From sequence record PZ496580.1: a stretch of 64,000 nt of DNA. One strand, written 5' to 3'. The notes beneath the pieces are model-generated. The model was not told the DNA's origin. It saw only the letters and a program-made list of their open reading frames with translations, and did not search any database. This document shows positions 11,926-63,210 of the stretch, one piece after another. Made by a program: the position numbers and the translations under genes. This DNA comes from a phage. The first letter of the stretch is position 1; each line of letters starts with the position of its first letter.

Positions 11926-11959
11926 AATATATTCCTCAATGTTTTGTCTTGATGGGAGT

Positions 11960-11988
11960 ATCTTACTACTCCCTTAATCCGGTGTCAA
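11960..11988 (-). promoter_or_regulatory. sigma70-type early promoter cassette (TTGACA-N17-TAAGAT) with inverted repeat GGGAGTA-N6-TACTCCC over the -10
   Basis: Plus-strand tgtcaa at 11983-11988; palindrome at 11954-11973. Confidence 0.6.
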
Positions 11989-11995
11989 CTACTTT

Positions 11996-12151
11996 TTAAA
12001 TTTCTTCTACAGTAAAGTCTTCAATGTTGTTGTGCTCTGCGAACGTTGCCAGACCAGCATCCCACGCATCATCCTCAGAGAAGAATACACCGTAACGTTC
12101 ATATCCTTTAGCGCCTTCAAATTTAACCATTAATTTGTGAGTATGTTTCAT
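11996..12151 (-). CDS. Hypothetical protein (51 aa from ATG at 12151; track start 12211 is an upstream alternative)
   Basis: ATG at 12151 preceded by AGGAG. Confidence 0.5.
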   Translation of the reverse strand: MKHTHKLMVKFEGAKGYERYGVFFSEDDAWDAGLATFAEHNNIEDFTVEEI

Positions 12152-12220
12152 TTTGATTCTCCTTCGTTGTCTTGATGAGTTCATTATAGGGGATCTGCGA
12201 TCCCCTGTCAATAACTATTT

Positions 12221-12433
12221 TTAATTTTTACCCGCTCGTGCATTAATACGCATTTTCTGCATAGCCATGATCTGGCTTACTGCTTCTTCTTTACGTTCTT
12301 GCGTGATAACGTGACCAGATTCCGCAAACTCTCCCGCAACTTCTTCTACGATCTCGCGAACTTGAGAACGTCCAAAGATGCGGTTTCCTTCGTAGCTCAT
12401 AAACTCTGTTACTACTTGCTCGATAGATTTCAT
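12221..12433 (-). CDS. Hypothetical protein (70 aa)
   Basis: ORF with SD AAGGAGAAT upstream. Confidence 0.5.
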   Translation of the reverse strand: MKSIEQVVTEFMSYEGNRIFGRSQVREIVEEVAGEFAESGHVITQERKEEAVSQIMAMQKMRINARAGKN

Positions 12434-12462
12434 GTGATTCTCCTTTTGTTTGGTATGGGAGT

Positions 12463-12491
12463 ATGTTACTACTCCCTTATCTTTACGTCAA
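12463..12491 (-). promoter_or_regulatory. Early promoter cassette (TTGACG-N17-TAACAT) with GGGAGTA-N6-TACTCCC palindrome
   Basis: Same module as 11960..11988; palindrome at 12457-12476. Confidence 0.55.
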
Positions 12492-12498
12492 CTAGTTT

Positions 12499-12741
12499 TT
12501 AGAAATTTTTCGCTTCTTCTTCGGTCATCATAACCGCGCATTCGTGCATAACTTTGAAAACCGGATCAATCATGTCGAATGCTTCGCGAGACAATTTACG
12601 AGAAGCGATTTTGATTGCTTCATCGTCTTCGACTACAGGAACAAAAACAGTTTTCAGTTCATCGAGAATGGCAGCTTCTTTTTCATTCAGGAAGATACCA
12701 GCGTCATACAGTGCAACTTCGATAACATTAACTTTAACCAT
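12499..12741 (-). CDS. Hypothetical protein (80 aa)
   Basis: ORF in minus-strand array. Confidence 0.5.
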   Translation of the reverse strand: MVKVNVIEVALYDAGIFLNEKEAAILDELKTVFVPVVEDDEAIKIASRKLSREAFDMIDPVFKVMHECAVMMTEEEAKNF

Positions 12742-12774
12742 TTTAATTCCTCCAGTTCGTTTCGGTATGGGAGT

Positions 12775-12803
12775 ATAATACTACCGATGACCTTTGGCGT
12801 CAA
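12775..12803 (-). promoter_or_regulatory. Early promoter cassette (TTGACG-N17-TATTAT), degenerate palindrome
   Basis: Plus cgtcaa at 12798-12803; GGGAGTATAATACTACC at 12759-12775. Confidence 0.45.
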
Positions 12804-13005
12804 CTGCTTTTTTATTATTTTCGTGAAAATTTTTCGTCGCCTCATGTGCTTTTCGCTGGGCTTCTTGTTGTGCTTGCTGGCGTGCTGCCTCTTGCGATGC
12901 CATAACAGACGCATTTGCAGCAGTTACAGCCGCGACCATCGCTGCGGTATTGGCATTTACAGTACATGCGCTCGCCAACAAAGCAATCGCAATCATTTTC
13001 TTCAT
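12781..13005 (-). CDS. Small secreted Ala/Gln-rich protein (74 aa) with signal peptide
   Basis: MKKMIAIALLASACTVNA signal-peptide-like N-terminus. Confidence 0.5.
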   Translation of the reverse strand: MKKMIAIALLASACTVNANTAAMVAAVTAANASVMASQEAARQQAQQEAQRKAHEATKNFHENNKKAVDAKGHR

Positions 13006-13241
13006 AGTTTCCCCTTTATGTTATCTTCGACCTTCATCCATTCCGCGTATTCTTGCGCGGCTACTTTCGGATTTAGTCCGTCTTCGTACATTGCTTCAAG
13101 TAATTCTTCGTCGGTGGGCTTATACCCTAGATAAGCCTCCACCTGATTTTTCCAAATTTTATACCAGTTCATATTATCACCAGTCAAGAGCGCGTGTCTC
13201 TGCGTCTTCCCATGCTTGATCCATAACAGCCTTAAAAACAT
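13002..13241 (-). CDS. Hypothetical protein (79 aa)
   Basis: ORF; ATGA start/stop overlap with downstream ORF. Confidence 0.5.
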   Translation of the reverse strand: MFLRLLWIKHGKTQRHALLTGDNMNWYKIWKNQVEAYLGYKPTDEELLEAMYEDGLNPKVAAQEYAEWMKVEDNIKGKL

Positions 13242-13449
13242 ATTCTAAGGTATCATCTTTCGAGAATCCGAAGACCTTAGACGGAATATCTTCAATTGCT
13301 ACTCCAGCAACTTCCGCATTACGAGCCTGACAATAATGCAACTCTAAGTTATCGAGATAGCGACCGCCTAATTTCTCCATATCATCCCAACATTTCCAGT
13401 AACCTACTTTATCGGCAATTGCTAACACTTTGCTGTTTTCGTTGCTCAT
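13177..13449 (-). CDS. Hypothetical protein (90 aa from ATG at 13449; track start 13509)
   Basis: ATG at 13449 preceded by AGGAG; the track start would overlap the promoter cassette. Confidence 0.5.
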   Translation of the reverse strand: MSNENSKVLAIADKVGYWKCWDDMEKLGGRYLDNLELHYCQARNAEVAGVAIEDIPSKVFGFSKDDTLEYVFKAVMDQAWEDAETRALDW

Positions 13450-13480
13450 CTTTGATTCTCCTTTCGTTTGGTGTGGGAGT

Positions 13481-13509
13481 ATGTTACTACTCCCATTATT
13501 CAGTGTCAA
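13481..13509 (-). promoter_or_regulatory. Early promoter cassette (TTGACA-N17-TAACAT) with GGGAGTA-N6-TACTCCC palindrome
   Basis: Plus tgtcaa at 13504-13509; palindrome at 13475-13494. Confidence 0.55.
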
Positions 13510-13515
13510 TAGATT

Positions 13516-13722
13516 TTATTCGATTATTTCAAATTTTGCTACCGGATCACCGTTTCGTTTGGTTGCGGTAAGTTGTTGTTTGTCAAAGTAAAACCAAATA
13601 TAGTCACCATGAACTACATCAAATGTGTTTCCGTTATTGTTCGTGAATACATCAACATCATAATCACACCCGACACTAAAGCTATAATTGATGTGATCGG
13701 TTTCAATGCAACGTACTTTCAT
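13516..13722 (-). CDS. Hypothetical protein (68 aa from ATG at 13722; track start 13785)
   Basis: ATG at 13722 preceded by AGGAG. Confidence 0.5.
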   Translation of the reverse strand: MKVRCIETDHINYSFSVGCDYDVDVFTNNNGNTFDVVHGDYIWFYFDKQQLTATKRNGDPVAKFEIIE

Positions 13723-13753
13723 TTTTGAATCTCCTTTTTGTTTCACTGTGTGT

Positions 13754-13782
13754 ATTATGCGGTGCTGGATTATGGAAGTCAA
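13754..13782 (-). promoter_or_regulatory. sigma70-type promoter (TTGACT-N17-CATAAT)
   Basis: Immediately downstream of the terminator at 13791..13822. Confidence 0.45.
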
Positions 13783-13790
13783 CAACTTTT

Positions 13791-13822
13791 TAAAATAAAA
13801 AAGCCGACCACAAGGATCGGCT
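13791..13822 (-). terminator. Rho-independent terminator after ORF 13833..14228
   Basis: Minus strand GCCGATCC-TTGTG-GTCGGC hairpin followed by TTTTTTATTTT. Confidence 0.65.
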
Positions 13823-13832
13823 TAATAATCAG

Positions 13833-14228
13833 TTACTTACTAAATTTCTTTTTGGCTTCGTCTACTGCATGAGATGCCAGTACCGCCGCCGCATGTGCAT
13901 TTTTATCTGTGTTGCAGAGAACACCCAGATAAACATCACGCCAAAGTTTAATCATCTCGTAGATCATATCAATATCATTTTCTTGTTTGTTGGCGATGCT
14001 ATTCGTCGTTATCTGGTAAGGTAACGGCTTGATCTGTACTGGTTCCGCCATCGGGCTAATAGGTTTCGGATCGGTCATAATAGGTGCTGTTGTCGGTGAT
14101 GTTTTCCATACGTCATTATTCCACGGTTTAACGGTTGTACCGTATATTTTATAAGGATTTTTGTCTGGATCAACCATCCATGTATGATGAATACCTAAAC
14201 CATTTGAAGTAATGCGTCGCTCAGTCAT
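13833..14228 (-). CDS. Hypothetical protein (131 aa)
   Basis: ORF in minus-strand array. Confidence 0.5.
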   Translation of the reverse strand: MTERRITSNGLGIHHTWMVDPDKNPYKIYGTTVKPWNNDVWKTSPTTAPIMTDPKPISPMAEPVQIKPLPYQITTNSIANKQENDIDMIYEMIKLWRDVYLGVLCNTDKNAHAAAVLASHAVDEAKKKFSK

Positions 14229-16442: not shown

Positions 16443-16487
16443 AATGTATTCCCTCTAAGAAAGGCCGCGCAAAGCGGCCTATGTTGA

Positions 16488-16828: not shown

Positions 16829-17830
16829 TTAGTAATGGCTAAAACCTTCGGTTACATCTTCAACCACATAGTAACGATGACAGCGCATTTTGGCATTCGC
16901 ATAATCTTTCGGGATACTTACAACGTGACGCGGATCAACTTTACATTTAATGATTCGGCCTCGTCCACCGCCATAGTGCGGAATATAGTGTTTCGCTGCA
17001 ACGTGGAGGCCATTAGAGCAAGTACGGTCATCATCGGGGTCCACGTCTTTACGCTTCATTTTAACCGTGCGCCCTGGGCTATTATCAAACGTATGCGTAA
17101 AGAAATCTTTATAATCAACATCAACACGTTTCCATGCATAGAAACAACCATCTTCCCCGATCTCAATGTCGTTGTGCTCTAAGAAGTCAAACAGACGATC
17201 TACCGCCTTACGGCTAGGGTTTTTCTTGCACTTCTCAAAGAAGTTCAGATAGTGCGTATATGGCTTATTCTCTTTAATCGACTCCACAACTCGACGAGTC
17301 AGATTATTATCAAGAACAATATTATGATAATACACAATACCATTTTCGATACGGAAAGCGCCGTGATAATATACTTCAACCGCTTTCTTAATGTCAATCA
17401 GCGTAATTGCTTTAATGAAATCATTCTGCTTAACTGCCTCCAGTGCTTCATTAAAGTTAACATGCGACGGATCAGCAGTATAAACAATGTCACCACATGT
17501 AATAGTAATAAATTTAGATGAGGCTATTGCTACGATTTTTGAGGAAGTAGTCACGGGCTTTTTTGCGCGTTCACCGCCTTTTCCTTTACTGGTTTTACGT
17601 CGTGCTTTACGTTTTTCTAGTGCCTTGCGACCTTCCGCTACTGCGTCTTTCTGAATCAGTAATACACGGGAGGCAGTACGACGAGATACACCAAATGCTG
17701 CCGCAAGTGCTTCGCGGGTAGTAAACTTACCCTCACCCCACTGTTTAGCCAGTTTGATTTGTTTTGCAGAGTCCAGACATTGAACGTTACGGTCAGAGAC
17801 GGTGATTTTTGCTTTAGTCATAGTATTCAT
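16829..17830 (-). CDS. rIIB: rIIB protein (333 aa)
   Basis: C-terminal RLFDFLEHNDIEIGEDGCFYAWK...SIPKDYANAKMRCHRYYVVEDVTEGF matches remembered T4 rIIB; N-terminal HTH TTREALAAAFGVSRRTASRVL. Confidence 0.85.
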   Translation of the reverse strand: MNTMTKAKITVSDRNVQCLDSAKQIKLAKQWGEGKFTTREALAAAFGVSRRTASRVLLIQKDAVAEGRKALEKRKARRKTSKGKGGERAKKPVTTSSKIVAIASSKFITITCGDIVYTADPSHVNFNEALEAVKQNDFIKAITLIDIKKAVEVYYHGAFRIENGIVYYHNIVLDNNLTRRVVESIKENKPYTHYLNFFEKCKKNPSRKAVDRLFDFLEHNDIEIGEDGCFYAWKRVDVDYKDFFTHTFDNSPGRTVKMKRKDVDPDDDRTCSNGLHVAAKHYIPHYGGGRGRIIKCKVDPRHVVSIPKDYANAKMRCHRYYVVEDVTEGFSHY

Positions 17831-17870
17831 TCCTCTATTAGTGGGCGACTCTCGCCGCCCGATTCACATC

Positions 17871-17880
17871 ATTATACCAG
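17871..17880 (-). promoter_or_regulatory. Extended -10 promoter (TGgTATAAT) in front of rIIB, followed by a short stem-loop (17843-17860)
   Basis: Minus strand cTGgTATAATg directly after the stop of the small HTH ORF; GGCGA-CTC-TCGCC hairpin; then SD AGAGGAA. Confidence 0.4.
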
Positions 17881-17882
17881 AA

Positions 17883-18014
17883 TTATTTTGCTTCTACAAC
17901 CTTGCGGATTGTGCGGTCTGATACATTATAGATTCGTGCCAGTTCGCCTTTAGTCAAGCCGCGAGCGTATTGTTTACGGATGGTTTCTTTCTGGATAGCG
18001 GTCAGTTTAGTCAT
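17883..18014 (-). CDS. Small HTH protein (43 aa) resembling the N-terminal HTH of T4 rIIB
   Basis: Not in ORF track (<60 aa). ATG at 18014 preceded by GAGGTGA 11 nt after the rIIA stop. MTKLTAIQKETIRKQYARGLTKGELARIYNVSDRTIRKVVEAK aligns with remembered T4 rIIB N-terminus ...YTQQELADWQGVSVDTIRRVLKNAEEAK. Confidence 0.55.
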   Translation of the reverse strand: MTKLTAIQKETIRKQYARGLTKGELARIYNVSDRTIRKVVEAK

Positions 18015-20134: not shown

Positions 20135-20148
20135 AATATAATCCTCAC

Positions 20149-20612: not shown

Positions 20613-20650
20613 TTTGATTCTCCTAAGTGGTATCTCGTTTCGATGGGGAC

Positions 20651-20679
20651 ATTATGATATATCCCCGATCCAGTGTCAA
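20651..20679 (-). promoter_or_regulatory. sigma70-type early promoter (TTGACA-N17-CATAAT)
   Basis: Plus tgtcaa at 20674-20679; GGGGA..TCCCC inverted repeat spans the spacer. Confidence 0.5.
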
Positions 20680-20687
20680 CAACTTTT

Positions 20688-20987: not shown

Positions 20988-21022
20988 CGTTAAATCCTCA
21001 TAAAAAGAAAAGGGAGACTCCC

Positions 21023-21050
21023 ATTATAGAGAATCTCCCTTGTATGTCAA
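21023..21050 (-). promoter_or_regulatory. sigma70-type early promoter (TTGACA-N16-TATAAT) flanked by GGGAGA..TCTCCC inverted repeat
   Basis: Minus cacTTGACAtacaagggagattctcTATAATgggagtctccc. Confidence 0.55.
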
Positions 21051-21053
21051 GTG

Positions 21054-22877: not shown

Positions 22878-22980
22878 TATTAAACCTCTTCATAACATAA
22901 CCATAACTTACTGCAACCGCCACAAAGACGGCTGCAACAATCATATTAAAAATTGAGTGATTGTCAAGTATATGACTCAT
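22870..22980 (-). CDS. Small single-TM peptide ORF (36 aa)
   Basis: Not in ORF track. ATG overlaps the upstream stop (ATGA); stop overlaps the gp39 start. MSHILDNHSIFNMIVAAVFVAVAVSYGYVMKRFNNE. Confidence 0.35.
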   Translation of the reverse strand: MSHILDNHSIFNMIVAAVFVAVAVSYGYVMKRFNNE

Positions 22981-26704: not shown

Positions 26705-26732
26705 AATTGATTCTCCTTAGTTGGTATGTGTG

Positions 26733-26762
26733 TATTATTGTCTATCTGGTTTGTGCTGTCAA
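26733..26762 (-). promoter_or_regulatory. sigma70-type early promoter (TTGACA, weak -10) with conserved 5'UTR
   Basis: Plus tgtcaa at 26757-26762; UTR ACACATACCAACTAAGGAGAATCAATT-ATG is nearly identical to the one at 63153. Confidence 0.4.
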
Positions 26763-26765
26763 CAC

Positions 26766-33577: not shown

Positions 33578-33621
33578 AGTATATTTCTCACGTTGGCGGG
33601 TATCGTCACCCAACACCCGCC

Positions 33622-33649
33622 ATTATACACACTTTATCTTAAATGTCAA
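33622..33649 (-). promoter_or_regulatory. sigma70-type promoter (TTGACA-N16-TATAAT) at the 3' end of gene 43
   Basis: Plus tgtcaa at 33644-33649 and attata at 33622-33627. Confidence 0.5.
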
Positions 33650-36317: not shown

Positions 36318-36349
36318 AATATAAACTCCTTCACTTACGAAAGACACTC

Positions 36350-36378
36350 ATTATAGGGGAATCGACTTAGTTTGTCAA
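36350..36378 (-). promoter_or_regulatory. sigma70 consensus promoter (TTGACA-N17-TATAAT) for gene 43
   Basis: Perfect -35 and -10 hexamers, about 26 nt 5'UTR to the gp43 ATG. Confidence 0.65.
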
Positions 36379-36399
36379 TACCCCTATCCCATCAGTATC

Positions 36400-37342: not shown

Positions 37343-38331
37343 TATACGAACTCCAATTCAACCATTAATTGCATTAACAAAAAGACAATGTGAATCTCTT
37401 TATCAGCCGCGTGCGCAAACATCTGATTATTTTCACCGATAATCTCGGTCAGACGGATAATCGACGCTGGCTTAACTTGAGTATACAACTCATTATAAAG
37501 TTTCTTGACAAATTGAGCGTATGTATTGGTATGGCGTGGTGCGAGTTTACGCACATTAGCAAACTGTTTAGTTTTAAGTGCTTCCACCACATCGGTTACT
37601 TCGGTATTGCTACTTTCGATAACCATGCTCAATACGCCAGCATCAATTTTACCATGTTTAGCGTAGCGGTCCAAAAGTTTCATTACGCGTCGGAAGTCTG
37701 GAAAGTTCTGCTTAACCAGTTCCGCTAATACGCGCATTTCTTCTACTGGCACACCTTCTTTATCAAGAATTGCTTTACACCGGACGATCATTTCTTTCAT
37801 CATGCGAAGCTGGTCATCTTTAGTCGGAGATCCAAACGTGATGGGGTCAAATCGAGACCGCAACGCTGGGATAATACCTTCTAGATCATTTGCTGTAATG
37901 ATGAATGTCACATTGTTTGAGTATGCCTCAGAGAAACTACGCAAGTGTCTTTGAGCATCAGCAAGCCCCGCTCGGTCATACTCATCGATAATAACAACTT
38001 TGCCTTTTTCTCGTTTTTCTTCATCAAGTGATACACTCTGCGCAAAGCGTGTAATCTCATCGCGGATAAAATCAATCTTACAATCTGCGCCGTTAACGAA
38101 CAGATAATCAACACCCACATCTTCGCAAAGCGCCTTAGCAACGGTTGTTTTACCAGTACCCGGCGATGGGCTATGCAGAATCATTGAAGGGATTCGGCCT
38201 TGCTTAACAATCTGCGCGAAGATCTTTTTATCTGCTTCCGGCAGAATACATTCAGAAATTGATTTCGGACGGTATTTCTGTTCCCACTGAAACTCATTTT
38301 CATTAACACTCAGCATATAATCACCTCTCAC
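37342..38331 (-). CDS. 44: Clamp loader large subunit gp44 (AAA+, 329 aa)
   Basis: EQKYRP...ILHSPSPGTGKTTVAKALC...DEYDR matches remembered T4 gp44. Confidence 0.9.
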   Translation of the reverse strand: MRGDYMLSVNENEFQWEQKYRPKSISECILPEADKKIFAQIVKQGRIPSMILHSPSPGTGKTTVAKALCEDVGVDYLFVNGADCKIDFIRDEITRFAQSVSLDEEKREKGKVVIIDEYDRAGLADAQRHLRSFSEAYSNNVTFIITANDLEGIIPALRSRFDPITFGSPTKDDQLRMMKEMIVRCKAILDKEGVPVEEMRVLAELVKQNFPDFRRVMKLLDRYAKHGKIDAGVLSMVIESSNTEVTDVVEALKTKQFANVRKLAPRHTNTYAQFVKKLYNELYTQVKPASIIRLTEIIGENNQMFAHAADKEIHIVFLLMQLMVELEFV

Positions 38332-38381
38332 AAATTACATCATTAAAATGGGGAGTATTTACACTCCCCGCAAATATTATA

Positions 38382-39071
38382 TTAGTCGGTGTAGCTGGAG
38401 TCAAGGTCACACGCGATCATATAAGATACGGTTTCACTTGCCAGCCATACAGCCTTACGGCGAGTGAAGCTCAGTTTGTAATCGCCGAAGTCAGTAGCAA
38501 CCAGTTTCATGTTATCTTTACGAATAAAGAAATGGAAGTCGGCGGTTCCGGCATATTCGCCCATGTCAAGACAAAACATCTCATTCGGATTATTTTTGTC
38601 AATCTCTTCCCAGCCTTTGATCATAAGACGACCATCAATCGGAAGAAATTCAAGGCGGTCCACTTTAAGCTGATTGCTCATTTTCATAAGCTGTTTCAGA
38701 TCGTCGTTGCTCAGTTCGTAATCTACATCGCTTGCAGGTGGAGTAACTCGGCCTTTCGGTGATACGATAGCAGCAGCACTAGCACCAGGATAATTAATTT
38801 TCAGACGATCGTTAGACACACGAATGTTACCAGTGCGGTTATCAACCGTAATATCTGCTTCATCACCTACCAGATTCAGAATACCCAGGAAAGAGTTAAG
38901 ATCATAGATCCCAATTTCGTGTTCCAGTTCTTGATTCAGAGTCGCTTCACCATATACAACGTTTGTCATGTTTTTGGTGATCAGGACGTTTCCTTTTTTC
39001 AGGATGATACCTGGGTTAATAGCGGAAAAGTTTTTCAGGGTAGCAATGGTTTCTTTAGTAAGTTTCATCAA
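38382..39071 (-). CDS. 45: Sliding clamp gp45 (229 aa)
   Basis: MKLTKETIATLKNFSAINPGI resembles remembered T4 gp45 MKLSKDTTALLKNFATINSGI; size 229 vs 228 aa. Confidence 0.9.
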   Translation of the reverse strand: MMKLTKETIATLKNFSAINPGIILKKGNVLITKNMTNVVYGEATLNQELEHEIGIYDLNSFLGILNLVGDEADITVDNRTGNIRVSNDRLKINYPGASAAAIVSPKGRVTPPASDVDYELSNDDLKQLMKMSNQLKVDRLEFLPIDGRLMIKGWEEIDKNNPNEMFCLDMGEYAGTADFHFFIRKDNMKLVATDFGDYKLSFTRRKAVWLASETVSYMIACDLDSSYTD

Positions 39072-42899: not shown

Positions 42900-43159
42900 A
42901 GTACAGACTCCATAGATCCACGCGCAATAACATTCTGGGTGATATCAGCAATCTTACGGGATACGATGTTTGTTAGCCCTTCTTTGGTGATATTTTCACG
43001 ATCAAATGGGATTTCGTCATGAGTCCACAAACCATAGTTAGATCGAAATGATAGCATATACTGACCATCTCGCACAACCTCAAATACATGGATCTTAGTG
43101 AATTTCGATAAACCTTCGTTGATTTCTTTCAGTGCATTAGTAATCATAACAACCTCCAA
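42896..43159 (-). CDS. Hypothetical protein (87 aa)
   Basis: ORF with promoter cassette upstream. Confidence 0.5.
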   Translation of the reverse strand: MEVVMITNALKEINEGLSKFTKIHVFEVVRDGQYMLSFRSNYGLWTHDEIPFDRENITKEGLTNIVSRKIADITQNVIARGSMESVL

Positions 43160-43171
43160 TCAATTTTAGAG

Positions 43172-43200
43172 AGTATAACGGGGATTTCTCCCCGCGTCAA
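43172..43200 (-). promoter_or_regulatory. Early promoter (TTGACG-N17-TATACT) with CGGGGA-GAAA-TCCCCG hairpin in the spacer
   Basis: Plus cgtcaa at 43195-43200. Confidence 0.5.
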
Positions 43201-49467: not shown

Positions 49468-49479
49468 AATATATTCCCC

Positions 49480-50497: not shown

Positions 50498-50498
50498 C

Positions 50499-51144: not shown

Positions 51145-51186
51145 ATTTGATTCTCCTGTAAAGTTGTATCTCGTCTTGATGAATAT

Positions 51187-51215
51187 AGTATAGGGGATCT
51201 CTCGATCCCCGTCAA
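51187..51215 (-). promoter_or_regulatory. Early promoter (TTGACG-N17-TATACT) with GGGGATC-TCTC-GATCCCC palindrome filling the spacer
   Basis: Plus cgtcaa at 51210-51215; palindrome at 51193-51210. Confidence 0.55.
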
Positions 51216-51219
51216 GCAT

Positions 51220-52311: not shown

Positions 52312-52340
52312 GTTGTCCTCTCGTTGTTTTCGATGTGAGC

Positions 52341-52368
52341 ATTATACATTAGCTAATCAGGTTGTCAA
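52341..52368 (-). promoter_or_regulatory. sigma70 consensus promoter (TTGACA-N16-TATAAT)
   Basis: Plus tgtcaa at 52363-52368 and attata at 52341-52346. Confidence 0.6.
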
Positions 52369-52373
52369 CACCT

Positions 52374-52406
52374 AAAAACGAAAAAGCCGACCCTTTCGGA
52401 TCGGCT
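52374..52406 (-). terminator. Rho-independent terminator after nrdD
   Basis: Minus AGCCGATCC-GAAA-GGGTCGGCT hairpin followed by TTTTTCGTTTTT. Confidence 0.7.
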
Positions 52407-52411
52407 GAAAA

Positions 52412-54274: not shown

Positions 54275-54284
54275 TGTATCACCT

Positions 54285-54310: not shown

Positions 54311-54319
54311 CGTTGATAG

Positions 54320-54814: not shown

Positions 54815-54844
54815 AATATAATCCTCTCGTTGTTAAGTGGGAGT

Positions 54845-54872
54845 ATTATAGCATACTCCCTTTGCATGTCAA
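54845..54872 (-). promoter_or_regulatory. Early promoter cassette (TTGACA-N16-TATAAT) with GGGAGTAT-N6-ATACTCCC palindrome
   Basis: Palindrome at 54838-54859 overlaps the -10. Confidence 0.6.
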
Positions 54873-56047: not shown

Positions 56048-56078
56048 AATATAATCCTCTCGTTGTTTAGATGGGAGT

Positions 56079-56107
56079 ATCTTACTACTCCCGTTTCATC
56101 ATGTCAA
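56079..56107 (-). promoter_or_regulatory. Early promoter cassette (TTGACA-N17-TAAGAT) with GGGAGTA-N6-TACTCCC palindrome
   Basis: Plus tgtcaa at 56102-56107; palindrome at 56074-56093. Confidence 0.6.
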
Positions 56108-56957: not shown

Positions 56958-56988
56958 TGTTGATTCTCCTTCTTGATTAGATGGGAGT

Positions 56989-57017
56989 ATTTTACTACTC
57001 CCATTTCATGTTGTCAA
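56989..57017 (-). promoter_or_regulatory. Early promoter cassette (TTGACA-N17-TAAAAT) with GGGAGTA-N6-TACTCCC palindrome
   Basis: Plus tgtcaa at 57012-57017; palindrome at 56984-57003. Confidence 0.6.
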
Positions 57018-57023
57018 CTACTA

Positions 57024-57497: not shown

Positions 57498-57521
57498 AAA
57501 TTCACCCTCCAAAGAAGGTAT

Positions 57522-57803: not shown

Positions 57804-57811
57804 GTTATACC

Positions 57812-58624
57812 TCAATCTACGTTAGTTACATAAACTTCTTGCGTATCAGAAGACTTGCCACCTGAACGATCTAGGCAATAGGTCTTATTCAACAGGACGC
57901 AGTTTAAATCGTTCCGCTTGATAAAGTCAAGAAGATGATCATTTACCTTTCCCTTATGATGTGTGACATTACTGATACCAAACTGAAAACCACGCGCCAT
58001 AATAGATTCTACCCACTGATAGAATTTAATCTCTTCCTCGTCACTCCAGAACTTATTATATTCCGCAGAAGTGATAAGGTACGGCGGGTCCAAATAAACG
58101 AAATCACCTGGCAAGATCTCGATCTCGTCATATCGTCCAGAAGTAAAATTGATTCGACCGTCTTTGTTTTCTTCTTTAAAATTCAGGACACGCTCTACCG
58201 CGTTTTCGTTAAAAGTCCGGCGACCAAAGTTAGCATTAAATTCGCCCTTCCGGTTATGGCGGTTAATGTTGCTAAAACTATGCTGAATCAACACAAACAG
58301 AGATAGCGGATCTGGATTCTCGTTATACTTCTTGCGGAATGCCATATAAGAATCTTTATCATCACGAGACAAACCATTCTCGGCAATAATCCGCTTGATC
58401 GTAGAAACCGGATCAGGACACTCGTCAATCGCTTTGTACGCGTCAATTAAGCGGTGATCATAGTCATTAGCCAGCACATCCCCTTCGACGTACAGAGACA
58501 CGCTCAAGCCGCCACAAAAGGCATCAACAAAGCGGTTATAGTGCTTAGGGAAATACTTACTAACACCAGGCAATAACTTTTCCTTATTGCCCGTATAGGG
58601 AATTAAACCTAATGCTTTCTTCAT
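57812..58624 (-). CDS. dam: DNA adenine methyltransferase Dam (270 aa)
   Basis: IPYTGNKEKLLP, FVDAFCGGLSVSL and DPPYLIT motifs match remembered T4 Dam. Confidence 0.9.
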   Translation of the reverse strand: MKKALGLIPYTGNKEKLLPGVSKYFPKHYNRFVDAFCGGLSVSLYVEGDVLANDYDHRLIDAYKAIDECPDPVSTIKRIIAENGLSRDDKDSYMAFRKKYNENPDPLSLFVLIQHSFSNINRHNRKGEFNANFGRRTFNENAVERVLNFKEENKDGRINFTSGRYDEIEILPGDFVYLDPPYLITSAEYNKFWSDEEEIKFYQWVESIMARGFQFGISNVTHHKGKVNDHLLDFIKRNDLNCVLLNKTYCLDRSGGKSSDTQEVYVTNVD

Positions 58625-59055
58625 TATCCCTTCCTCAAATAAGTTCGCTCAATCTCTACCAGTTCGAAAAAATCTTGCCAACCGCAAGGAAAATTGCAGT
58701 TTCCGAAATGATCCTCTTTGTAAAGTTCTTTACCGGATGGCAGCTTAATATCTGTTACGCTGTAGTATCCGCAACAATCGCAATCACCCTCTGTATATTC
58801 TGTTTTAGTCGGAATATCCATCATTGCCAGATACAAAGGTACATCGTCTTGCTCAAAGTTCATGTAACCTTCATGGTCAAACGAAACAAAATTGTCATCA
58901 CCACCGAAAGGGATATAATGGTCATAGTCGGTTACAGGTTGACCGTGTAATTCCCATTCTACAATTTTAATATTACCGCTAAAATTGATACCCATAATTT
59001 CAACAAGAAAATGAGTATCGTCAATGTAAATCTTACTAGGAGTTGGATAAACCAT
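58624..59055 (-). CDS. Hypothetical Cys-rich protein (143 aa)
   Basis: ORF; C-terminal CDCCGYY...CNFPCGW cysteine cluster. Confidence 0.5.
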   Translation of the reverse strand: MVYPTPSKIYIDDTHFLVEIMGINFSGNIKIVEWELHGQPVTDYDHYIPFGGDDNFVSFDHEGYMNFEQDDVPLYLAMMDIPTKTEYTEGDCDCCGYYSVTDIKLPSGKELYKEDHFGNCNFPCGWQDFFELVEIERTYLRKG

Positions 59056-59065
59056 TATATAATCC

Positions 59066-59362
59066 TCATATCTCAGAGAATAGAATCTCTGTTAGCTTCA
59101 CTGACTGCTCTCTGAATGTTAGCGTATACTCGAAAGGAAAGTCAACACCTAATTTCAGAAGAGAATAGCCTACCGCCTCTTTATGCTTATCGGTTAGGGC
59201 AATCCTAACCAATTCCCGTTGAATCTCTTTAGGCGGTGAATGGATAGTAACACTGGTATCATGCAATGTCCAGTCACCATTACGAATCAAGATTAACGGT
59301 TTATCGTCATTGAAGATCACCGACCCCTTTCCGGTCGGTGAGTGTTTTATACTAATCATCAA
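59066..59362 (-). CDS. Hypothetical protein (98 aa)
   Basis: ORF in minus-strand array. Confidence 0.5.
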   Translation of the reverse strand: MMISIKHSPTGKGSVIFNDDKPLILIRNGDWTLHDTSVTIHSPPKEIQRELVRIALTDKHKEAVGYSLLKLGVDFPFEYTLTFREQSVKLTEILFSEI

Positions 59363-59573
59363 ATTCTAAGAAATATTCTGGAACGATATAACCGTTAAAG
59401 TCATTGCACTTATAAAAATGTGGTGCATTTAATGCTGGATGAGCGTTTGTAAACCTCACGTCAGCCAGAAACAGAACGTAATTAACAGGTCTGATACCGA
59501 CAGAATCAGGATCTAATCCCTTTTCTCTCAGTTCAGCCAGCGTTAAAACTCGTCCAGATCGTAACTTAGCCAT
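59352..59573 (-). CDS. Hypothetical protein (73 aa)
   Basis: ORF in minus-strand array. Confidence 0.45.
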   Translation of the reverse strand: MAKLRSGRVLTLAELREKGLDPDSVGIRPVNYVLFLADVRFTNAHPALNAPHFYKCNDFNGYIVPEYFLEFDD

Positions 59574-59859
59574 GATTTACCCCCAATTCATCAAGATTAT
59601 GTCGCAGCATTTCAGAGTATTTTTCTACTTCCTTGATCTTAGTGTGGATCTCCACGATCTCATCTTCACTATCAGAAAGTTTAATGGCAATAGCGGTGCT
59701 GCTTTTACCCGCCTTGATCGCTTCTTTCAGTTCAACCAACATGTCCGCGTGTTTCAATAGTAATTCTTCACGTTGAACATAAGCGACGGTCAAAGCCTCA
59801 TCAGCGATTTCTAAAGCATTTTCAGCGACACCAACAACCATTTTACGAGTAGACAGCAT
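59566..59859 (-). CDS. Hypothetical coiled-coil protein (97 aa)
   Basis: ORF in minus-strand array. Confidence 0.5.
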   Translation of the reverse strand: MLSTRKMVVGVAENALEIADEALTVAYVQREELLLKHADMLVELKEAIKAGKSSTAIAIKLSDSEDEIVEIHTKIKEVEKYSEMLRHNLDELGVNHG

Positions 59860-59873
59860 AAATTCACCTCACA

Positions 59874-60182
59874 TTATTTCACGTTAACGCCGTCATCAAT
59901 CCAGCCGACGCTATTTGGTTTAACAGTTTTACCATAGGATGCATACTTAATCAAGCATGGTTTAACATCATTATCAAATCTTCCTAAACGTACTCCAAAA
60001 TCAGGAATATCCATGTATGCGGCTTTATATCCCCATGTACCGTATTCAGAATCAATCTCAACCGGACGGCCTTTAAAAGCATACACGACACCGTGACGGT
60101 CAACGATAACATAGCAATAGCCAGCCGGAAGATACACAGTTTCGCCGTAAACTTTAACTGGAGTAGCAGAAGAGATAAACAT
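59874..60182 (-). CDS. Hypothetical protein (102 aa)
   Basis: ORF preceded by GAGGATTATATT-ATG module. Confidence 0.5.
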   Translation of the reverse strand: MFISSATPVKVYGETVYLPAGYCYVIVDRHGVVYAFKGRPVEIDSEYGTWGYKAAYMDIPDFGVRLGRFDNDVKPCLIKYASYGKTVKPNSVGWIDDGVNVK

Positions 60183-60216
60183 AATATAATCCTCACATCG
60201 TTCATTTGATGCGGTT

Positions 60217-60245
60217 ATTATATGATAACCGCATTTTCATGTCAA
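60217..60245 (-). promoter_or_regulatory. Early promoter cassette (TTGACA-N17-TATAAT) with GCGGTTAT-N6-ATAACCGC palindrome over the -10
   Basis: Plus tgtcaa at 60240-60245; palindrome at 60211-60232. Confidence 0.6.
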
Positions 60246-60251
60246 CAGTTT

Positions 60252-60626
60252 TTAAAAATCTTCTTCCGGTTTATATCGACCGTCGTCTTCTTGTTTTGGA
60301 GTAAATCCTTTATGCGTGCGCGGCTTCGCTTCCGGTTTACCAGCAATCATCAAACCAAAACATTTCAGCCCTTTATAACACATAACAATATTAACCACGG
60401 TCCACGTTATAGGCCATATAATAGAACAAATGGCATATGCTCCAGTATCGACCTCTTTGGTGTCCTTGTCGAATCTAGCATACAAGCAAATTATAAGATA
60501 GGTGATCATTGCACCAGTAGGCCAGATATAAAGTACATTAACAATATCTTGTGACGTCACGTTATCCTCCTTACATGTCTTGCAGTGCATAAAAGCATTT
60601 TTCTTCATAGTCATAGAAAATGTCAA
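60252..60626 (-). CDS. Hypothetical membrane protein (up to 124 aa; start ambiguous)
   Basis: Two hydrophobic helices; track start overlaps the upstream ORF by 55 nt. Confidence 0.45.
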   Translation of the reverse strand: MTFSMTMKKNAFMHCKTCKEDNVTSQDIVNVLYIWPTGAMITYLIICLYARFDKDTKEVDTGAYAICSIIWPITWTVVNIVMCYKGLKCFGLMIAGKPEAKPRTHKGFTPKQEDDGRYKPEEDF

Positions 60627-60849
60627 AGTATGCTTTTTCTACATACTCGCCATTGATCCAAGCGGCAGTAACAATCAGAGTGGTCCAGTTAGATCCGCTC
60701 TCAACCGTAAAGGTTTTAATACCCAGCTTCGCTGCTAAGTCGAACGCAAACCGGACGCAACCACGGCAGGAAGTGATATTGGAAGTTTTGATTTTGATGC
60801 CACCGCGAGTTTTAGAAATTTCTACTTTAGCGAAAGACAGGTTGCTCAT
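60571..60849 (-). CDS. Hypothetical protein (92 aa)
   Basis: ORF with SD AAGGAGAATCAAA before ATG. Confidence 0.5.
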   Translation of the reverse strand: MSNLSFAKVEISKTRGGIKIKTSNITSCRGCVRFAFDLAAKLGIKTFTVESGSNWTTLIVTAAWINGEYVEKAYFDIFYDYEEKCFYALQDM

Positions 60850-60891
60850 TTTGATTCTCCTTAAGAAAGTGTGTTTCGTTTTGATGTGTTT

Positions 60892-60920
60892 AGTATAGGG
60901 GATACGTGATCCCCTGTCAA
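60892..60920 (-). promoter_or_regulatory. Early promoter (TTGACA-N17-TATACT) with GGGGAT-CACGT-ATCCCC palindrome filling the spacer
   Basis: Plus tgtcaa at 60915-60920. Confidence 0.55.
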
Positions 60921-60936
60921 CAACTTTTTTATGATT

Positions 60937-61257
60937 TTAGTGAATTAACTCTACACCAAAATGAGGCACAGAGAACGCCTTACGAAACACATATTCATCA
61001 TGTTTAGGGATCGCCCCTAACCTCTCTATTTCGCTCGCTAACACGATAAACTGTTTATCTGGTGCATATGCCTTGTGTGCTTCAACAACGCACGGAAAAC
61101 GCGTTTTAGAGAGTTCTGGATAGTTTTCTGAATCCAGAAGGACGATGAATACCCTATTACATTGATTGTAGAATCCTGTTTTTGATTTCATCAAGTTTTT
61201 TTCTATGTACATTTCGTGCAATCTTCCTTTCATGATTTCGTTGGTTCTTGTCTTCAC
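60937..61257 (-). CDS. Hypothetical protein (up to 106 aa; start ambiguous)
   Basis: Track start overlaps the upstream ORF by 100 nt. Confidence 0.45.
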   Translation of the reverse strand: MKTRTNEIMKGRLHEMYIEKNLMKSKTGFYNQCNRVFIVLLDSENYPELSKTRFPCVVEAHKAYAPDKQFIVLASEIERLGAIPKHDEYVFRKAFSVPHFGVELIH

Positions 61258-61498
61258 AGTTTACCCACTCAACAAGATCTTTACCTAACTCGAAAGCCCA
61301 TTCTCGGTCCTGCTTTACGTTTTGTAGGTATGGACTTTCCGACACTCTACGAAGTGATGTTGTCGTAACAAGAATGATCCCAGGAATGGTCGGATGTTCC
61401 TTGCCATAAACAATAGGACGCGAGTCACTATCAATACCTTGTAAGAAGGTGTATCCTGAATCACTTAGAATCATATACATTTTCATTTCACACATCAC
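61157..61498 (-). CDS. Hypothetical protein (113 aa)
   Basis: ORF in minus-strand array. Confidence 0.5.
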   Translation of the reverse strand: MMCEMKMYMILSDSGYTFLQGIDSDSRPIVYGKEHPTIPGIILVTTTSLRRVSESPYLQNVKQDREWAFELGKDLVEWVNCEDKNQRNHERKIARNVHRKKLDEIKNRILQSM

Positions 61499-61752
61499 AG
61501 TTTCCTCAACCAGTTATTAAAGCGAGCAAACCATGATGCTTTTCGTGCTTCTTTTACTTTATGTGCACGAAAACCACTGAAACACCATTCATAATCATCA
61601 CCGAAACATGATTCAACAGGAACACCCGCATTTCGTAGTTCTCTGGTCTTTATCATGAATCCTTGACATAAGGGGCGACCTTCAACAATGATAGGAAGTT
61701 TAACTTTTTCCATGAAAGTATACCCAGCACGGTCAATAATTTCAATCTTCAT
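61495..61752 (-). CDS. Hypothetical protein (85 aa), tandem paralog of 61771..61968
   Basis: MKIEIIDRAGYTFMEKVKLPIIVEGR vs MKIEIIDDGGFSFMNGVKLPIIVEGR. Confidence 0.55.
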   Translation of the reverse strand: MKIEIIDRAGYTFMEKVKLPIIVEGRPLCQGFMIKTRELRNAGVPVESCFGDDYEWCFSGFRAHKVKEARKASWFARFNNWLRKL

Positions 61753-61770
61753 AATATAATCCTCAATTAG

Positions 61771-61968
61771 TTATACTGCCCATGCTTCATTTGCACGAAA
61801 ACACCATTCATACTCAGGAAAATAACCTTTAATTGGTACGCCAGCTTTTTGTAGTTCCTGCGTTTCTACAAGATAATCAAGCCCATAACGACGACCTTCC
61901 ACAATAATAGGAAGTTTAACGCCATTCATGAAAGAAAATCCACCATCATCAATAATTTCAATTTTCAT
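61771..61968 (-). CDS. Hypothetical protein (65 aa), tandem paralog
   Basis: See 61495..61752. Confidence 0.55.
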   Translation of the reverse strand: MKIEIIDDGGFSFMNGVKLPIIVEGRRYGLDYLVETQELQKAGVPIKGYFPEYEWCFRANEAWAV

Positions 61969-62213
61969 TTTACATTGTCTCCATAGATCTTTCCATCAAT
62001 ACCAATTTCACCAGCACGAACATCTAGGATAAGATGCGGTAGGTGTATGCAGTTTTCCCACCCTACGCGCTTCATTTCTGAAACAGTGACGTAAGCCCAT
62101 CCGTTCGCTGTAATAAAGTCTACTTCAACCTTGAGAGGAAAGCAAGACTTTTCTATGTTTTCAAATCCGACAATGTGTTTTGTCGTTGAATATGGAATAT
62201 ATCCGGTGATCAT
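61965..62213 (-). CDS. Hypothetical protein (82 aa)
   Basis: ORF, ATGA overlap with downstream ORF. Confidence 0.5.
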   Translation of the reverse strand: MITGYIPYSTTKHIVGFENIEKSCFPLKVEVDFITANGWAYVTVSEMKRVGWENCIHLPHLILDVRAGEIGIDGKIYGDNVK

Positions 62214-62671
62214 TTTGTGATCTCCTTATACTCAACACACCATAAACGGGTCGCCCATGATAAACGCTCATAACGCTGGCAGAAATCAGACCATAGATAT
62301 TGTGTACCGTCTTGCATAGTTGAAATATGCGTTTTCTCTCCTACTTTCACGAATGAAGTATTCGATTTTGTGATCTCGACCGGAGTATATCCGAAAGCTG
62401 GTTCCAAGTCAACATCTGAACTAAATGCTAATTTAACAGAATTTGTTTTTCTGACCGCTGTCCGGTTTCCTTCTGGGTATAGCACAGCAGGTTTAGCGCC
62501 TAAGCGGATAAACTCAGTGTTTTTAATGAACAGAATATCATGATAACCGTCATATTCCGACACTTCCATAGTAACAGGAAAATCGACATGTTCTAAACCT
62601 GGTAGATCTCGCATATCATGAAATGTAGCCATCAACTTTTTCATCTTGTATTCCTCACTCTTCTGTTTCAT
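62210..62671 (-). CDS. Hypothetical protein (153 aa)
   Basis: ORF in minus-strand array. Confidence 0.5.
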   Translation of the reverse strand: MKQKSEEYKMKKLMATFHDMRDLPGLEHVDFPVTMEVSEYDGYHDILFIKNTEFIRLGAKPAVLYPEGNRTAVRKTNSVKLAFSSDVDLEPAFGYTPVEITKSNTSFVKVGEKTHISTMQDGTQYLWSDFCQRYERLSWATRLWCVEYKEITK

Positions 62672-62852
62672 TTCTTTTATATGGTACTATAACAGGATTA
62701 ATACAGCAAGCACCAATTACGTTATGAGCACCACAATTTAAGCATTTATAATCATGGAACTTATTAAGGAATCGACCAAACTCATAGCCGACTAACGCCG
62801 CGTGTACTTGAGTCTCGATCTCATCCATATCAGCCAATGTTTTAACCTTCAT
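62655..62852 (-). CDS. Small zinc-finger protein (65 aa from ATG at 62852; track start 62891)
   Basis: ATG at 62852 preceded by GAGGATTATATT; CLNCGAHNVIGACC motif. Confidence 0.45.
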   Translation of the reverse strand: MKVKTLADMDEIETQVHAALVGYEFGRFLNKFHDYKCLNCGAHNVIGACCINPVIVPYKRNETEE

Positions 62853-62862
62853 AATATAATCC

Positions 62863-63153
62863 TCAAATGGTAGTTTTGCGAAGATGGTCATTACATGCTT
62901 TTAATGCATCAGTCGCGGTGTCATAGCGAGTATTATCATAGCACCAGTAACCATCTGTCAACTGATAAATCAATCCGTCCCTTTTAGCTTCGATGAAAGA
63001 TAACTCTTTGAAAGTTTCTACTTTCTTTGCTGATACTCCACGGTCACGGCGCTTATAGAGTTTAGCTAAAATGCGTTCAGCTTGTTCCTCTTTATCACCA
63101 GACAGATCCCAAATAATGTTGCGGATATGTTTGATTAATTGTTCAGTGGTCAT
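62863..63153 (-). CDS. Hypothetical protein (96 aa)
   Basis: ORF with conserved UTR/SD AAGGAGAATCAAAG before ATG. Confidence 0.5.
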   Translation of the reverse strand: MTTEQLIKHIRNIIWDLSGDKEEQAERILAKLYKRRDRGVSAKKVETFKELSFIEAKRDGLIYQLTDGYWCYDNTRYDTATDALKACNDHLRKTTI

Positions 63154-63182
63154 CTTTGATTCTCCTTAGTTGGTATGTGTGC

Positions 63183-63210
63183 ATTATAGCATTGTGATTA
63201 TCTTTGTCAA
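63183..63210 (-). promoter_or_regulatory. sigma70 consensus promoter (TTGACA-N16-TATAAT)
   Basis: Plus tgtcaa at 63205-63210 and attata at 63183-63188. Confidence 0.6.

Follow-up and report, generated by a model that had tools for sequence, protein, structure and literature searches.

The 64,000-nucleotide stretch of phage DNA considered here (sequence record PZ496580.1, referred to throughout as the window) carries, between the genes of its minus strand, a family of repeated promoter cassettes with GC-rich stem-loops. An earlier note on this DNA had likened them to the promoter-early stem-loop (PeSL) elements of RB49-type phages, and PeSL elements, with the roles in early transcription and recombination that have been proposed for these, is what they very probably are. 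Pieces of the window of 3 kb and 24 kb are 90-99% identical to ~60 records of Krischvirus, the RB49-like, T4-type coliphages; RB49 and Phi1 match at ~95.5% nucleotide identity over 97-99% of a 24-kb query, and the region at 11-14 kb is also ~95.5% identical to both. Judged by these identities, the phage is an RB49-type Krischvirus, a T4-type coliphage, and the gene names used below are transferred from the RB49 annotation. Positions 1-8950 hold late genes on the plus strand (tail-fibre genes 34-37 and the holin gene t), and from ~8980 to 64000 all genes are on the minus strand. That block opens with a hyperplastic region of small open reading frames (ORFs), ORF253c-266c; these are followed by genes 52, rIIB, rIIA, 39, dexA, dda, srd, modB, 56, 61, 41, 40 and uvsX, then by 43, regA, 62, 44, 45, rpbA, 46, 47 and 55 and, at the far end, by nrd genes, frd.2, 49, dam, further small ORFs and gene 38.

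Folding every minus-strand intergenic gap and then anchoring promoters yields 23 intergenic cassettes on the minus strand between ~9 and 64 kb, with a stem-loop in 22 of them, and one probable extra upstream of rIIB, so that the earlier estimate of about 20 was right; the plus-strand tail-fibre block, 1-8950, has none. The cassettes share the orientation of the genes and either lie between them or reach into the final codons of the gene upstream. Hypothetical ORFs follow 17 of the 23, and the other six precede named genes (39, srd, modB, 43, 44 and frd.2); gene 43 has a cassette on either side. Designated by the first coordinate of the -35 hexamer, the cassettes fall into classes according to where the stem lies. 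Ten stems, one of them degenerate, span the -10, most of the hexamer being in the loop (class A: 11988, 12491, 13509, 20679, 21050, 54872, 56107, 57017, 60245 and the degenerate 12803). Four take up precisely the spacer, starting at the last base of the -35 and reaching the -10 (class B: 12211, 43200, 51215 and 60920), three are hairpins with a T-run 37-41 nt upstream of the -35 (class C: 13782, 52368 and 63210), four lie just downstream of the -10 (class D: 22967, 27331, 33649 and 38404) and one, at 36378, encloses the promoter. The cassettes are, in the order of the window:

11926..11995 (minus): cassette, ORF260c orthologue downstream; TTGACA 11988-11983; TAAGAT 11965-11960; class A GGGAGTA-N6-TACTCCC 11954-11973 over the -10
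12152..12220 (minus): cassette, ORF261c orthologue downstream; TTGACA 12211-12206; TATAAT 12188-12183; class B AGGGGATC-GCA-GATCCCCT 12188-12206 in the spacer
12434..12498 (minus): cassette, ORF262c orthologue downstream; TTGACG 12491-12486; TAACAT 12468-12463; class A stem 12457-12476
12742..12803 (minus): degenerate class A cassette; TTGACG 12803-12798, inside the upstream ORF; TATTAT 12780-12775; only the TACTCCC arm (plus-strand GGGAGTA 12769)
13450..13515 (minus): cassette, ORF264c orthologue downstream; TTGACA 13509-13504; TAACAT 13486-13481; class A stem 13474-13495
13723..13832 (minus): class C cassette, ORF 13516-13722 downstream; terminator hairpin 13801-13823 and T-run; TTGACT 13782-13777; CATAAT 13759-13754
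17822..17899 (minus): probable extra cassette, rIIB downstream; weak -35 TTGTAG 17899-17894; extended -10 TGgTATAAT 17876-17871; hairpin 17843-17860 downstream of the -10
20613..20687 (minus): cassette, ORF003c orthologue downstream; TTGACA 20679-20674; CATAAT 20656-20651; class A GGGGATAT-N6-ATGTCCCC 20645-20666
20988..21053 (minus): cassette, ORF005c orthologue downstream; TTGACA 21050-21045; TATAAT 21028-21023 in the loop; 13-bp stem 21010-21041, then T-run
22878..22976 (minus): class D cassette, gene 39 downstream; TTGACA 22967-22962; TATGAT 22945-22940; 13-14-bp stem 22908-22940 just past the -10
26705..26765 (minus): promoter-only cassette, srd downstream; TTGACA 26762-26757; AATAAT 26739-26734; no stem-loop
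27270..27338 (minus): class D cassette, modB downstream; TTGACA 27331-27326; TATTAT 27308-27303; imperfect stem ~27275-27302 and T-run
33578..33649 (minus): class D cassette, between gene 43 and ORF025c/uvsX; TTGACA 33649-33644; TATAAT 33627-33622; 12-bp stem 33594-33622
36318..36399 (minus): cassette, gene 43 (DNA polymerase) downstream; TTGACA 36378-36373; TATAAT 36355-36350; GGGG...CCCC stem around the -35 and spacer
38317..38404 (minus): class D cassette, gene 44 downstream; TTGACT 38404-38399; TATAAT 38381-38376; stem GGGGAGTG-TAAA-TACTCCCC 38350-38369
43148..43200 (minus): class B cassette, ORF038c orthologue downstream; TTGACG 43200-43195; TATACT 43177-43172; stem GCGGGGA-GAAA-TCCCCGT 43178-43195
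51145..51219 (minus): class B cassette, ORF053c orthologue downstream; TTGACG 51215-51210; TATACT 51192-51187; stem GGGGATC-GAGA-GATCCCC 51193-51210
52312..52411 (minus): class C cassette, past nrdD; terminator hairpin 52385-52406 and T-run; TTGACA 52368-52363; TATAAT 52346-52341
54815..54872 (minus): class A cassette, ORF057c orthologue downstream; TTGACA 54872-54867, overlapping the frd.2 stop; TATAAT 54850-54845; GGGAGTAT-N6-ATACTCCC (8 bp) 54839-54860
56048..56107 (minus): class A cassette, frd.2 downstream; TTGACA 56107-56102; TAAGAT 56084-56079; stem 56073-56092
56958..57023 (minus): class A cassette, between gene 49 and the ORF060c orthologue; TTGACA 57017-57012; TAAAAT 56994-56989; stem 56981-57004
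60183..60251 (minus): class A cassette, ORF068c orthologue downstream; TTGACA 60245-60240; TATAAT 60222-60217; stem ATGCGGTTAT-N6-ATAACCGCAT 60209-60234
60850..60936 (minus): class B cassette, ORF070c orthologue downstream; TTGACA 60920-60915; TATACT 60897-60892; stem AGGGGAT-CACGT-ATCCCCT 60897-60915
63154..63253 (minus): class C cassette, past gene 38; terminator hairpin 63226-63247 and T-run; TTGACA 63210-63205; TATAAT 63188-63183

The promoters of all 23 intergenic cassettes match the -35 consensus in at least five of six positions and have spacers of 16-17 nt and a -10 hexamer that is TAnnnT, CATAAT or AATAAT; three of them match the consensus in 12 of 12 positions. The A+T fraction of the 20 nt upstream of the -35 is 0.5-0.9 (mostly 0.8-0.9 in the cassettes of the hyperplastic regions), and an A/T-rich, UP-like motif recurs there as AAAAAGTTG-TTGACA. 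The ATG follows the -10 at a distance of 24-62 nt, with a GGAG or GAGG Shine-Dalgarno sequence, and two recurrent types of leader end in ...AAGGAGAATCAAnnATG or ...GAGAGGATTATATTATG. The stems, of which GGGAGTAGTAAGATACTCCC is a class A example, are 7-14 bp long, with energies of -9 to -21 kcal/mol and folding z-scores, for the isolated stem, of -1.9 to -4.7. Class A stems end, on their 3' side, at most 1 nt from the predicted +1; the exception is the stem of cassette 21050, which ends 6 nt beyond it and in which a promoter is superimposed on an intrinsic terminator.

The pattern is far more frequent than chance would make it. There are 46 instances of TTGACN-N16-18-TAnnnT on the minus strand and four on the plus strand, as against 5.1±2.1 (maximum 13) in 200 dinucleotide shuffles; when a perfect hairpin (at least 6 bp, with at least three GC pairs) is also required nearby, the corresponding numbers are 14, 0 and 0.18±0.39. 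There are five exact copies of GGGAGTA-N6-TACTCCC (at 11954, 12457, 13475, 56073 and 56983) where 0.05 are expected, a number that none of 100 shuffles reaches, and all eight plus-strand GGGAGTA heptamers of the window lie inside cassettes. A search for repeats that was blind to promoters returned the cassettes as the top direct-repeat families (D1, D2, D5 and D6); a scan of the whole window against Rfam yielded no family at the gathering threshold. Seven GGGAGTA-N6-TACTCCC sites had been listed in the earlier note. Five of these are exact, but the site placed at 54838 is GGGAGTAT-N6-ATACTCCC, starting at 54839, and the degenerate copy is at 12769 rather than 12759 and has a single arm; the other palindromes quoted there (51193, 60898, 60211 and 43178/9) are correct to within 1 nt.

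PeSL elements were defined in RB49 and Phi1 by Arbiol et al. in 2010 (Genome Biol Evol 2:140, PMC2839356) as consensus promoters of the E. coli sigma-70 type that have an AT-rich tract upstream and, at one of five positions, a polyG/polyC stem-loop, and that are located between a stop codon and the next Shine-Dalgarno/ATG, mostly before ORFans in hyperplastic regions. Each of the two genomes has 51-52 of them, including one on either side of gene 43. A lacZ fusion of PeSL206/205 gave high expression (other clones picked up -35 or -10 mutations), and the stem-loop of PeSL211/210, which is of class B and the only one tested, brought about a reduction comparable to that of rrnB T1 in a plasmid lacZ reporter (PMC2839356). 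Evidence from the polymerase chain reaction for excised mini-circles concerns RB49 ORF192 and ORF210 only (PMC2839356). The window presents every sequence-level feature of this family: promoter, AT tract, stem-loop, placement, small ORFs, indels and homology. Near-perfect TTGACA-N17-TATAAT promoters, AT-rich tracts and Gn-loop-Cn stems over the -10, in the spacer, upstream of the -35 or downstream of the -10 are common to the cassettes of the window and those of RB49 and Phi1, as is the link to indels; there is no difference in kind, the window having its own set of cassette-flanked ORFs and small loop patches. Going by this likeness, the cassettes belong to a family that was defined in 2010 from phages of this very genus. 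The comparison drawn by the earlier note is borne out, and the window is itself RB49-type: its cassettes align with those of RB49, Phi1 and other Krischvirus genomes, the stems being near-invariant, and several are orthologous or nearly identical to tested elements. Cassette 12211 is nearly the same as PeSL206/205, the element whose promoter was tested, and cassette 60920 has the sequence of PeSL211/210 over ~85 nt, though at another genome location. The RB49 GenBank record marks a 'hypothetical early promoter' at the orthologous sites of cassettes 33649, 36378 and 38404.

The 5' ends of RB49 early transcripts were reportedly mapped by Desplats et al. in 2002. According to Nolan et al. 2006 (PMC1524935), 5'-end mapping is in agreement with the early consensus of RB49, the C at -3 to -1 included, and the ...TACTCCC of the window, followed by A at +1, fits that consensus. 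The PeSL concept has been extended to T4/PST and KVP40/nt-1 (Comeau et al. 2014, PMC4122927), in which a promoter and a stem-loop likewise lie between small hyperplastic-region genes, beside indels. The promoters are different there (TTTACW...TAYWAT and TTGYVH...TAWWAT, as against the RB49-type sigma-70 consensus of the window) and the stems are AT-richer (AGnA...TCnT and A3-4G3...C3T3-4), whereas those of the window are G-rich.

How such cassettes would work can be proposed as follows. Just after infection, the unmodified host RNA polymerase would start at each cassette (the activity of every individual cassette of the window being predicted from its promoter sequence) and express the early gene that follows, in most cases a small ORF whose function is unknown. 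The transcript that a class A, B or C cassette itself initiates would lack a complete hairpin, since class A and B stems end at or before the predicted +1 and class C hairpins lie upstream of the -35; the hairpin would therefore form only in RNA that is read through from the upstream gene, and any role of the stem in RNA must concern that read-through. There it might act as a terminator or attenuator, or lend stability to the 3' end, so that each small gene would become an insulated transcription unit of its own. As a side effect or second function, the ~70-100 nt of similarity common to many cassettes would provide crossover sites for the efficient homologous recombination system of the phage; cassette-flanked genes could therefore be deleted, inserted or swapped without breaking their neighbours.

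Recombination junctions inside cassettes are seen directly when the window is aligned with RB49, Phi1 (part), MIZ4, kaaroe, ECD7 (part) and one IMG/VR Krischvirus contig; scans of IMG/VR gave only two near-complete Krischvirus contigs, and the survey is thus one of six relatives. The ORF at 11996-12151 has been lost from MIZ4 through a crossover between cassettes 12211 and 11988, in their AT-rich/-35 part. In RB49, MIZ4 and kaaroe, 13483-13718 is missing, cassette 13509 and the ORF at 13516-13722 are absent together, and a chimeric cassette with the promoter of 13782 and the leader of 13509 is present. ECD7 lacks 12465-13725, and its junction has 29 nt of shared leader. RB49 ORF004c is missing from the window at cassette 20679, MIZ4 has a ~770-nt insertion with an extra gene at cassette 22967, and MIZ4 and the IMG/VR relative cease to align with the window at 63177, a position within the leader of cassette 63210. 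With respect to RB49, the window also carries the ORFs of 12499-13005 and 13516-13722, which RB49 does not have. In all, the alignments show 15 events, either indels or replacements, which have 25 distinct breakpoints between them; seven of the events involve a cassette, and 10 of the 25 breakpoints fall inside cassettes, which make up 4.1% of the region (P=2.6e-8 under a uniform null). Under a null confined to gene boundaries, 10 of 20 breakpoints are in cassettes as compared with 23 of 101 boundaries (P=0.007), both values coming from few genomes and from events that are not phylogenetically independent. The presence or absence of cassette-flanked genes is polymorphic across 59 Krischvirus records: the ORF at 11996-12151 is in 36, the segment 12520-13000 in 32 and the ORF at 13516-13722 in 14, while a control gene, 13833-14228, is in all 59. 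The link with modular gene shuffling that the earlier note had mentioned is visible here as well.

Arbiol et al. compared PeSLs with integron attC cassettes and phage 'morons', no integrase or dedicated recombinase being known in RB49 and Phi1 (PMC2839356). In all of these, small, singly mobile genes are surrounded by short imperfect palindromes and bring or receive a promoter. Membership of the integron attC family was rejected on the grounds of that lack of a reported integrase and of the junctions of the window, which resemble simple homologous crossovers in stretches of 14-36 nt that both partners share; morons are not known to owe their mobility to their regulatory sequences.

What the stems conserve is examined most readily in class A. 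Among the class A paralogues of the window and of the other RB49 hyperplastic region, 77 of 77 cells at pairs 2-8 are paired, with two to four pair types per position, as counted directly on loop-anchored sequences (a MAFFT alignment registers on the -10 and is out of structural register). The arms in this set are GGGAGTA, GGGGATAT, GGGTGTAT, GCGGTTAT and GATTCTC; the family therefore keeps complementarity and not one sequence. The five GGGAGTA copies that are in the same register have arms that are 100% identical, beside 9-nt upstream spacers that are 37% and leaders that are 51% identical. Arms so uniform, in perfect palindromes without strand preference that overlie the -10 or occupy the spacer, so that RNA polymerase would be blocked by a protein bound there, are what one would expect if GGGAGTA-N6-TACTCCC and GGGGATC-N3-5-GATCCCC were double-stranded DNA sites of a dimeric phage protein, whether a repressor of early promoters or a factor that targets recombination, and a DNA-binding protein for the GGGG...CCCC motif has been a subject of speculation (Arbiol et al., PMC2839356). 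Against this, at least six unrelated arms (GGGAGTA, GGGGATAT, GGGTGTAT, GCGGTTAT, GGGGATC, CGGGGA and GGGGAG) occupy the same positions, with only complementarity kept. Half-site spacing also varies (6 or 8 nt in the GGGAGTA set; 3, 4 or 5 nt in the GGGGATC set), as does position relative to the promoter. The asymmetric, G·U-containing stems of other cassettes fold well in the transcript sense only, and A-to-G changes between orthologues keep a G·U pair and break the symmetry of the DNA; no candidate protein is known. The suggestion, also made in the earlier note, that the palindromes are operators of a phage repressor is disfavoured by these variations for the set as a whole, though it may hold for the GGGAGTA subset alone, and we regard DNA sites of this kind as highly improbable.

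Two sequence features of these palindromes may be recorded here. Cleavage by RegB, at GGAG, was considered as a role for GGGAGTA, whose GGAG lies within the stem. The GGGGATC...GATCCCC stems (12188-12206, 51193-51210 and 60897-60915) place one or two Dam sites within the promoter spacer; GATC occurs 349 times in the whole window, compared with 229 expected from base composition, and the phage has its own Dam methylase gene (dam, 57812-58624).

Between orthologues the stems are nearly invariant at ~95% genome identity, and their few substitutions are split about evenly between those that preserve a pair (to G·U or A·U) and those that break one. Differences between orthologous loops include multi-base patches that match other paralogues (ACGT as opposed to GGTG at 60920, for example), which suggests short-patch conversion among cassettes. 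G·U pairs give the long imperfect stems a fold that is 4-13 kcal/mol more stable in the transcript sense than in the opposite one, as is the case in the nine intervals that begin at 17822, 20613, 20988, 22878, 33578, 36318, 43148, 52312 and 63154; this preference is a sign of RNA, or else of single-stranded DNA from that strand. Nothing about strand sense follows from the perfect palindromes of classes A and B. A stem-level count of G·U pairs (17 in the transcript sense, one in the opposite sense) was discarded as proof of a role in RNA, since the stems had been picked on the minus strand, and the asymmetry is therefore used only for the nine long imperfect stems.

Ahead of gene 43 there is a further hairpin, CUUUC-GUAAGU-GAAGG (~36325-36345, minus strand), whose RB49 counterpart is CUUUC-GUAAAU-GAAGG. 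The translational operator of RB49 gp43 has a UAAA loop, the AA bases of which matter for binding (reviewed in PMC3014915); the loop in the window is UAAG.

Several results tell against this account of the cassettes as early promoters with RNA-level stems that double as recombination sites. When whole intervals are compared, the minus sense is the more stable in 12 of 22, a trend at most and no significant preference (Wilcoxon p=0.21 for energy and 0.085 for z-score), so that a reading at the level of RNA rests on the long imperfect stems and not on the perfect palindromes. The U-tract of a proper terminator is absent from class A and B stems: in the next 8 nt, nine class A stems have at most two T and the four class B stems at most four, and the latter are supplied by the -10 itself. 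These stems, which lie within the promoter, are not canonical intrinsic terminators. A GC stem with a T-run, as in Rho-independent terminators, is found in class C, in cassettes 21050 and 27331 and in several stand-alone hairpins, with 6-7 T of 8 in class C and 21050, and the cassette family as a whole cannot be classified as intrinsic (Rho-independent) terminators. As to gene shuffling, seven of the 10 breakpoints in cassettes belong to a single hyperplastic region, at 11.9-13.8 kb; the nine cassettes from 43200 to 60920 show no indel among the six relatives compared; and eight of the 15 events are unrelated to cassettes, involving homing endonucleases, intragenic replacements and tandem paralogues.

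To ascribe termination to class A stems is to extrapolate from the one class B stem-loop that has been tested; attenuation, pausing or protection of 3' ends by class A and B stems would be equally compatible with the sequence. It is conceivable, as the earlier note also suggested of RNA processing, that the stems, above all those without a U-tract, are elements of RNA processing or stability and not terminators: the read-through RNA would be cut or trimmed to the hairpin and the 3' end of the upstream message protected, with the promoter unchanged. The missing U-tracts suit such elements, as does the confinement of any RNA role of class A and B stems to upstream messages, and the published reporter, having read lacZ output, cannot separate termination from destabilisation of RNA (PMC2839356). 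Yet the stem-loop in that reporter cut expression as strongly as rrnB T1 (PMC2839356). In addition, class C and cassettes 21050 and 27331 have ordinary terminators of hairpin and T-run, and no particular nuclease is indicated. Stems of 7-10 bp are also short for RNase III. We consider processing elements unlikely.

One may also take a more deflationary view of the cassettes, as ordinary early promoters and terminators packed together by genome economy, with a likeness that reflects convergence on the sigma-70, UP-element and Shine-Dalgarno consensus and with crossovers that are incidental. Most of the conserved positions are, indeed, those of the promoter and the ribosome-binding site, the start-region string GAGGATTATATTATG is also found at genes that have no cassette, more than half of the indel events do without one, and T4-type recombination needs only short homology (PMC2839356). 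The likeness nevertheless exceeds the functional consensus, identical stem arms included; a near-identical copy of ~85 nt is found at two unrelated loci (cassette 60920 and RB49 PeSL211/210); the multi-nucleotide patches by which orthologues differ match other paralogues; and the excess of breakpoints in cassettes persists under the gene-boundary null. Convergence on this scale strikes us as decidedly unlikely, and the PeSL reading is retained.

The translation-initiation string just mentioned (plus strand CATAATATAATCCTC) is conserved at at least 12 minus-strand gene starts, with or without a cassette (10633-10657, 10835-10859, 20127-20151, 47716-47740, 54807-54831, 56040-56064, 59048-59072, 60175-60199, 61745-61769, 32237-32264, 56656-56683 and 62838-62865). 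The second type of leader, ...ACACATACCAACTAAGGAGAATCAAnnATG, is 92% identical between 26701-26738 and 63150-63187, in the srd and 63210 cassettes (family D20). The GAGG of the first leader type and the GGAG of the second might, one could infer, differ in sensitivity to the RegB nuclease. Strong sigma-70-like promoters without a stem-loop are found inside coding sequence on the minus strand at 18285, 57143, 40227, 39209 and 31213; the one at 18285-18257, within rIIA, matches the consensus in 12 of 12 positions, and those at 39209 and 31213 coincide with hypothetical early promoters annotated in RB49. Stand-alone GC-rich hairpins without a sigma-70 promoter occupy minus-strand gaps at 16443-16487, 30475-30524, 32252-32306, 44797-44886, 54275-54319 and 59321-59351, and several of these carry T-runs and resemble plain terminators, for example after genes 41, uvsX and nrdD.

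Other parts of the window deserve mention. Small tandem paralogous ORFs lie at 48643-50497, 61495-61968 and 54869-56670, with conserved N-terminal coding repeats (families D4 and D11), and frd.2 and its neighbour are paralogues (D14), both of which are called goF-like mRNA metabolism modulators in some records. An HNH endonuclease ORF (44242-44796, the RB49 ORF040c orthologue) is present in the window and RB49 and absent from Phi1 and kaaroe; in MIZ4 and ECD7, an HNH endonuclease insertion of ~1.1 kb splits gene 43 at window position 35115-35127, while gene 43 of the window is intact. The host-range genes 37 (distal tail fibre) and 38 (adhesin), at 5064-7976 and 63177-64000, are the most divergent from relatives, gene 37 being 72-79% identical or unaligned in the IMG/VR relative. 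The 256-residue ORF at 11155-11925 (the RB49 ORF260c orthologue) has relatives of 57-80% identity on IMG/VR contigs of 24-36 kb (loci L017-L026), which are mostly from isolate-genome projects and not Krischvirus; this hints at exchange with other, possibly temperate, phages.

The GGGAGTA-N6-TACTCCC palindrome is the commonest type of stem here and looks unlike a terminator, which raises the question of whether PeSL stems act by structure alone. The perfect-palindrome subfamilies could conceivably be sequence-specific sites for a phage protein that targets recombination in integron-like fashion or switches early promoters off. That would explain invariant arms beside randomised spacers, missing U-tracts and the lack of strand preference, and we think it very unlikely; if it were true, the GGGAGTA and GGGGATC palindromes would be more than mere read-through terminators. 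For the rest, the window is a further genome with the PeSL pattern, to which it contributes a few clean recombination junctions, and it leaves the picture unchanged: PeSLs serve, in the literature, as a model of the way in which accessory genes are shuffled by large lytic phages that have no dedicated recombinase for it, and they also show how dozens of tiny early genes can be given insulated transcription units.

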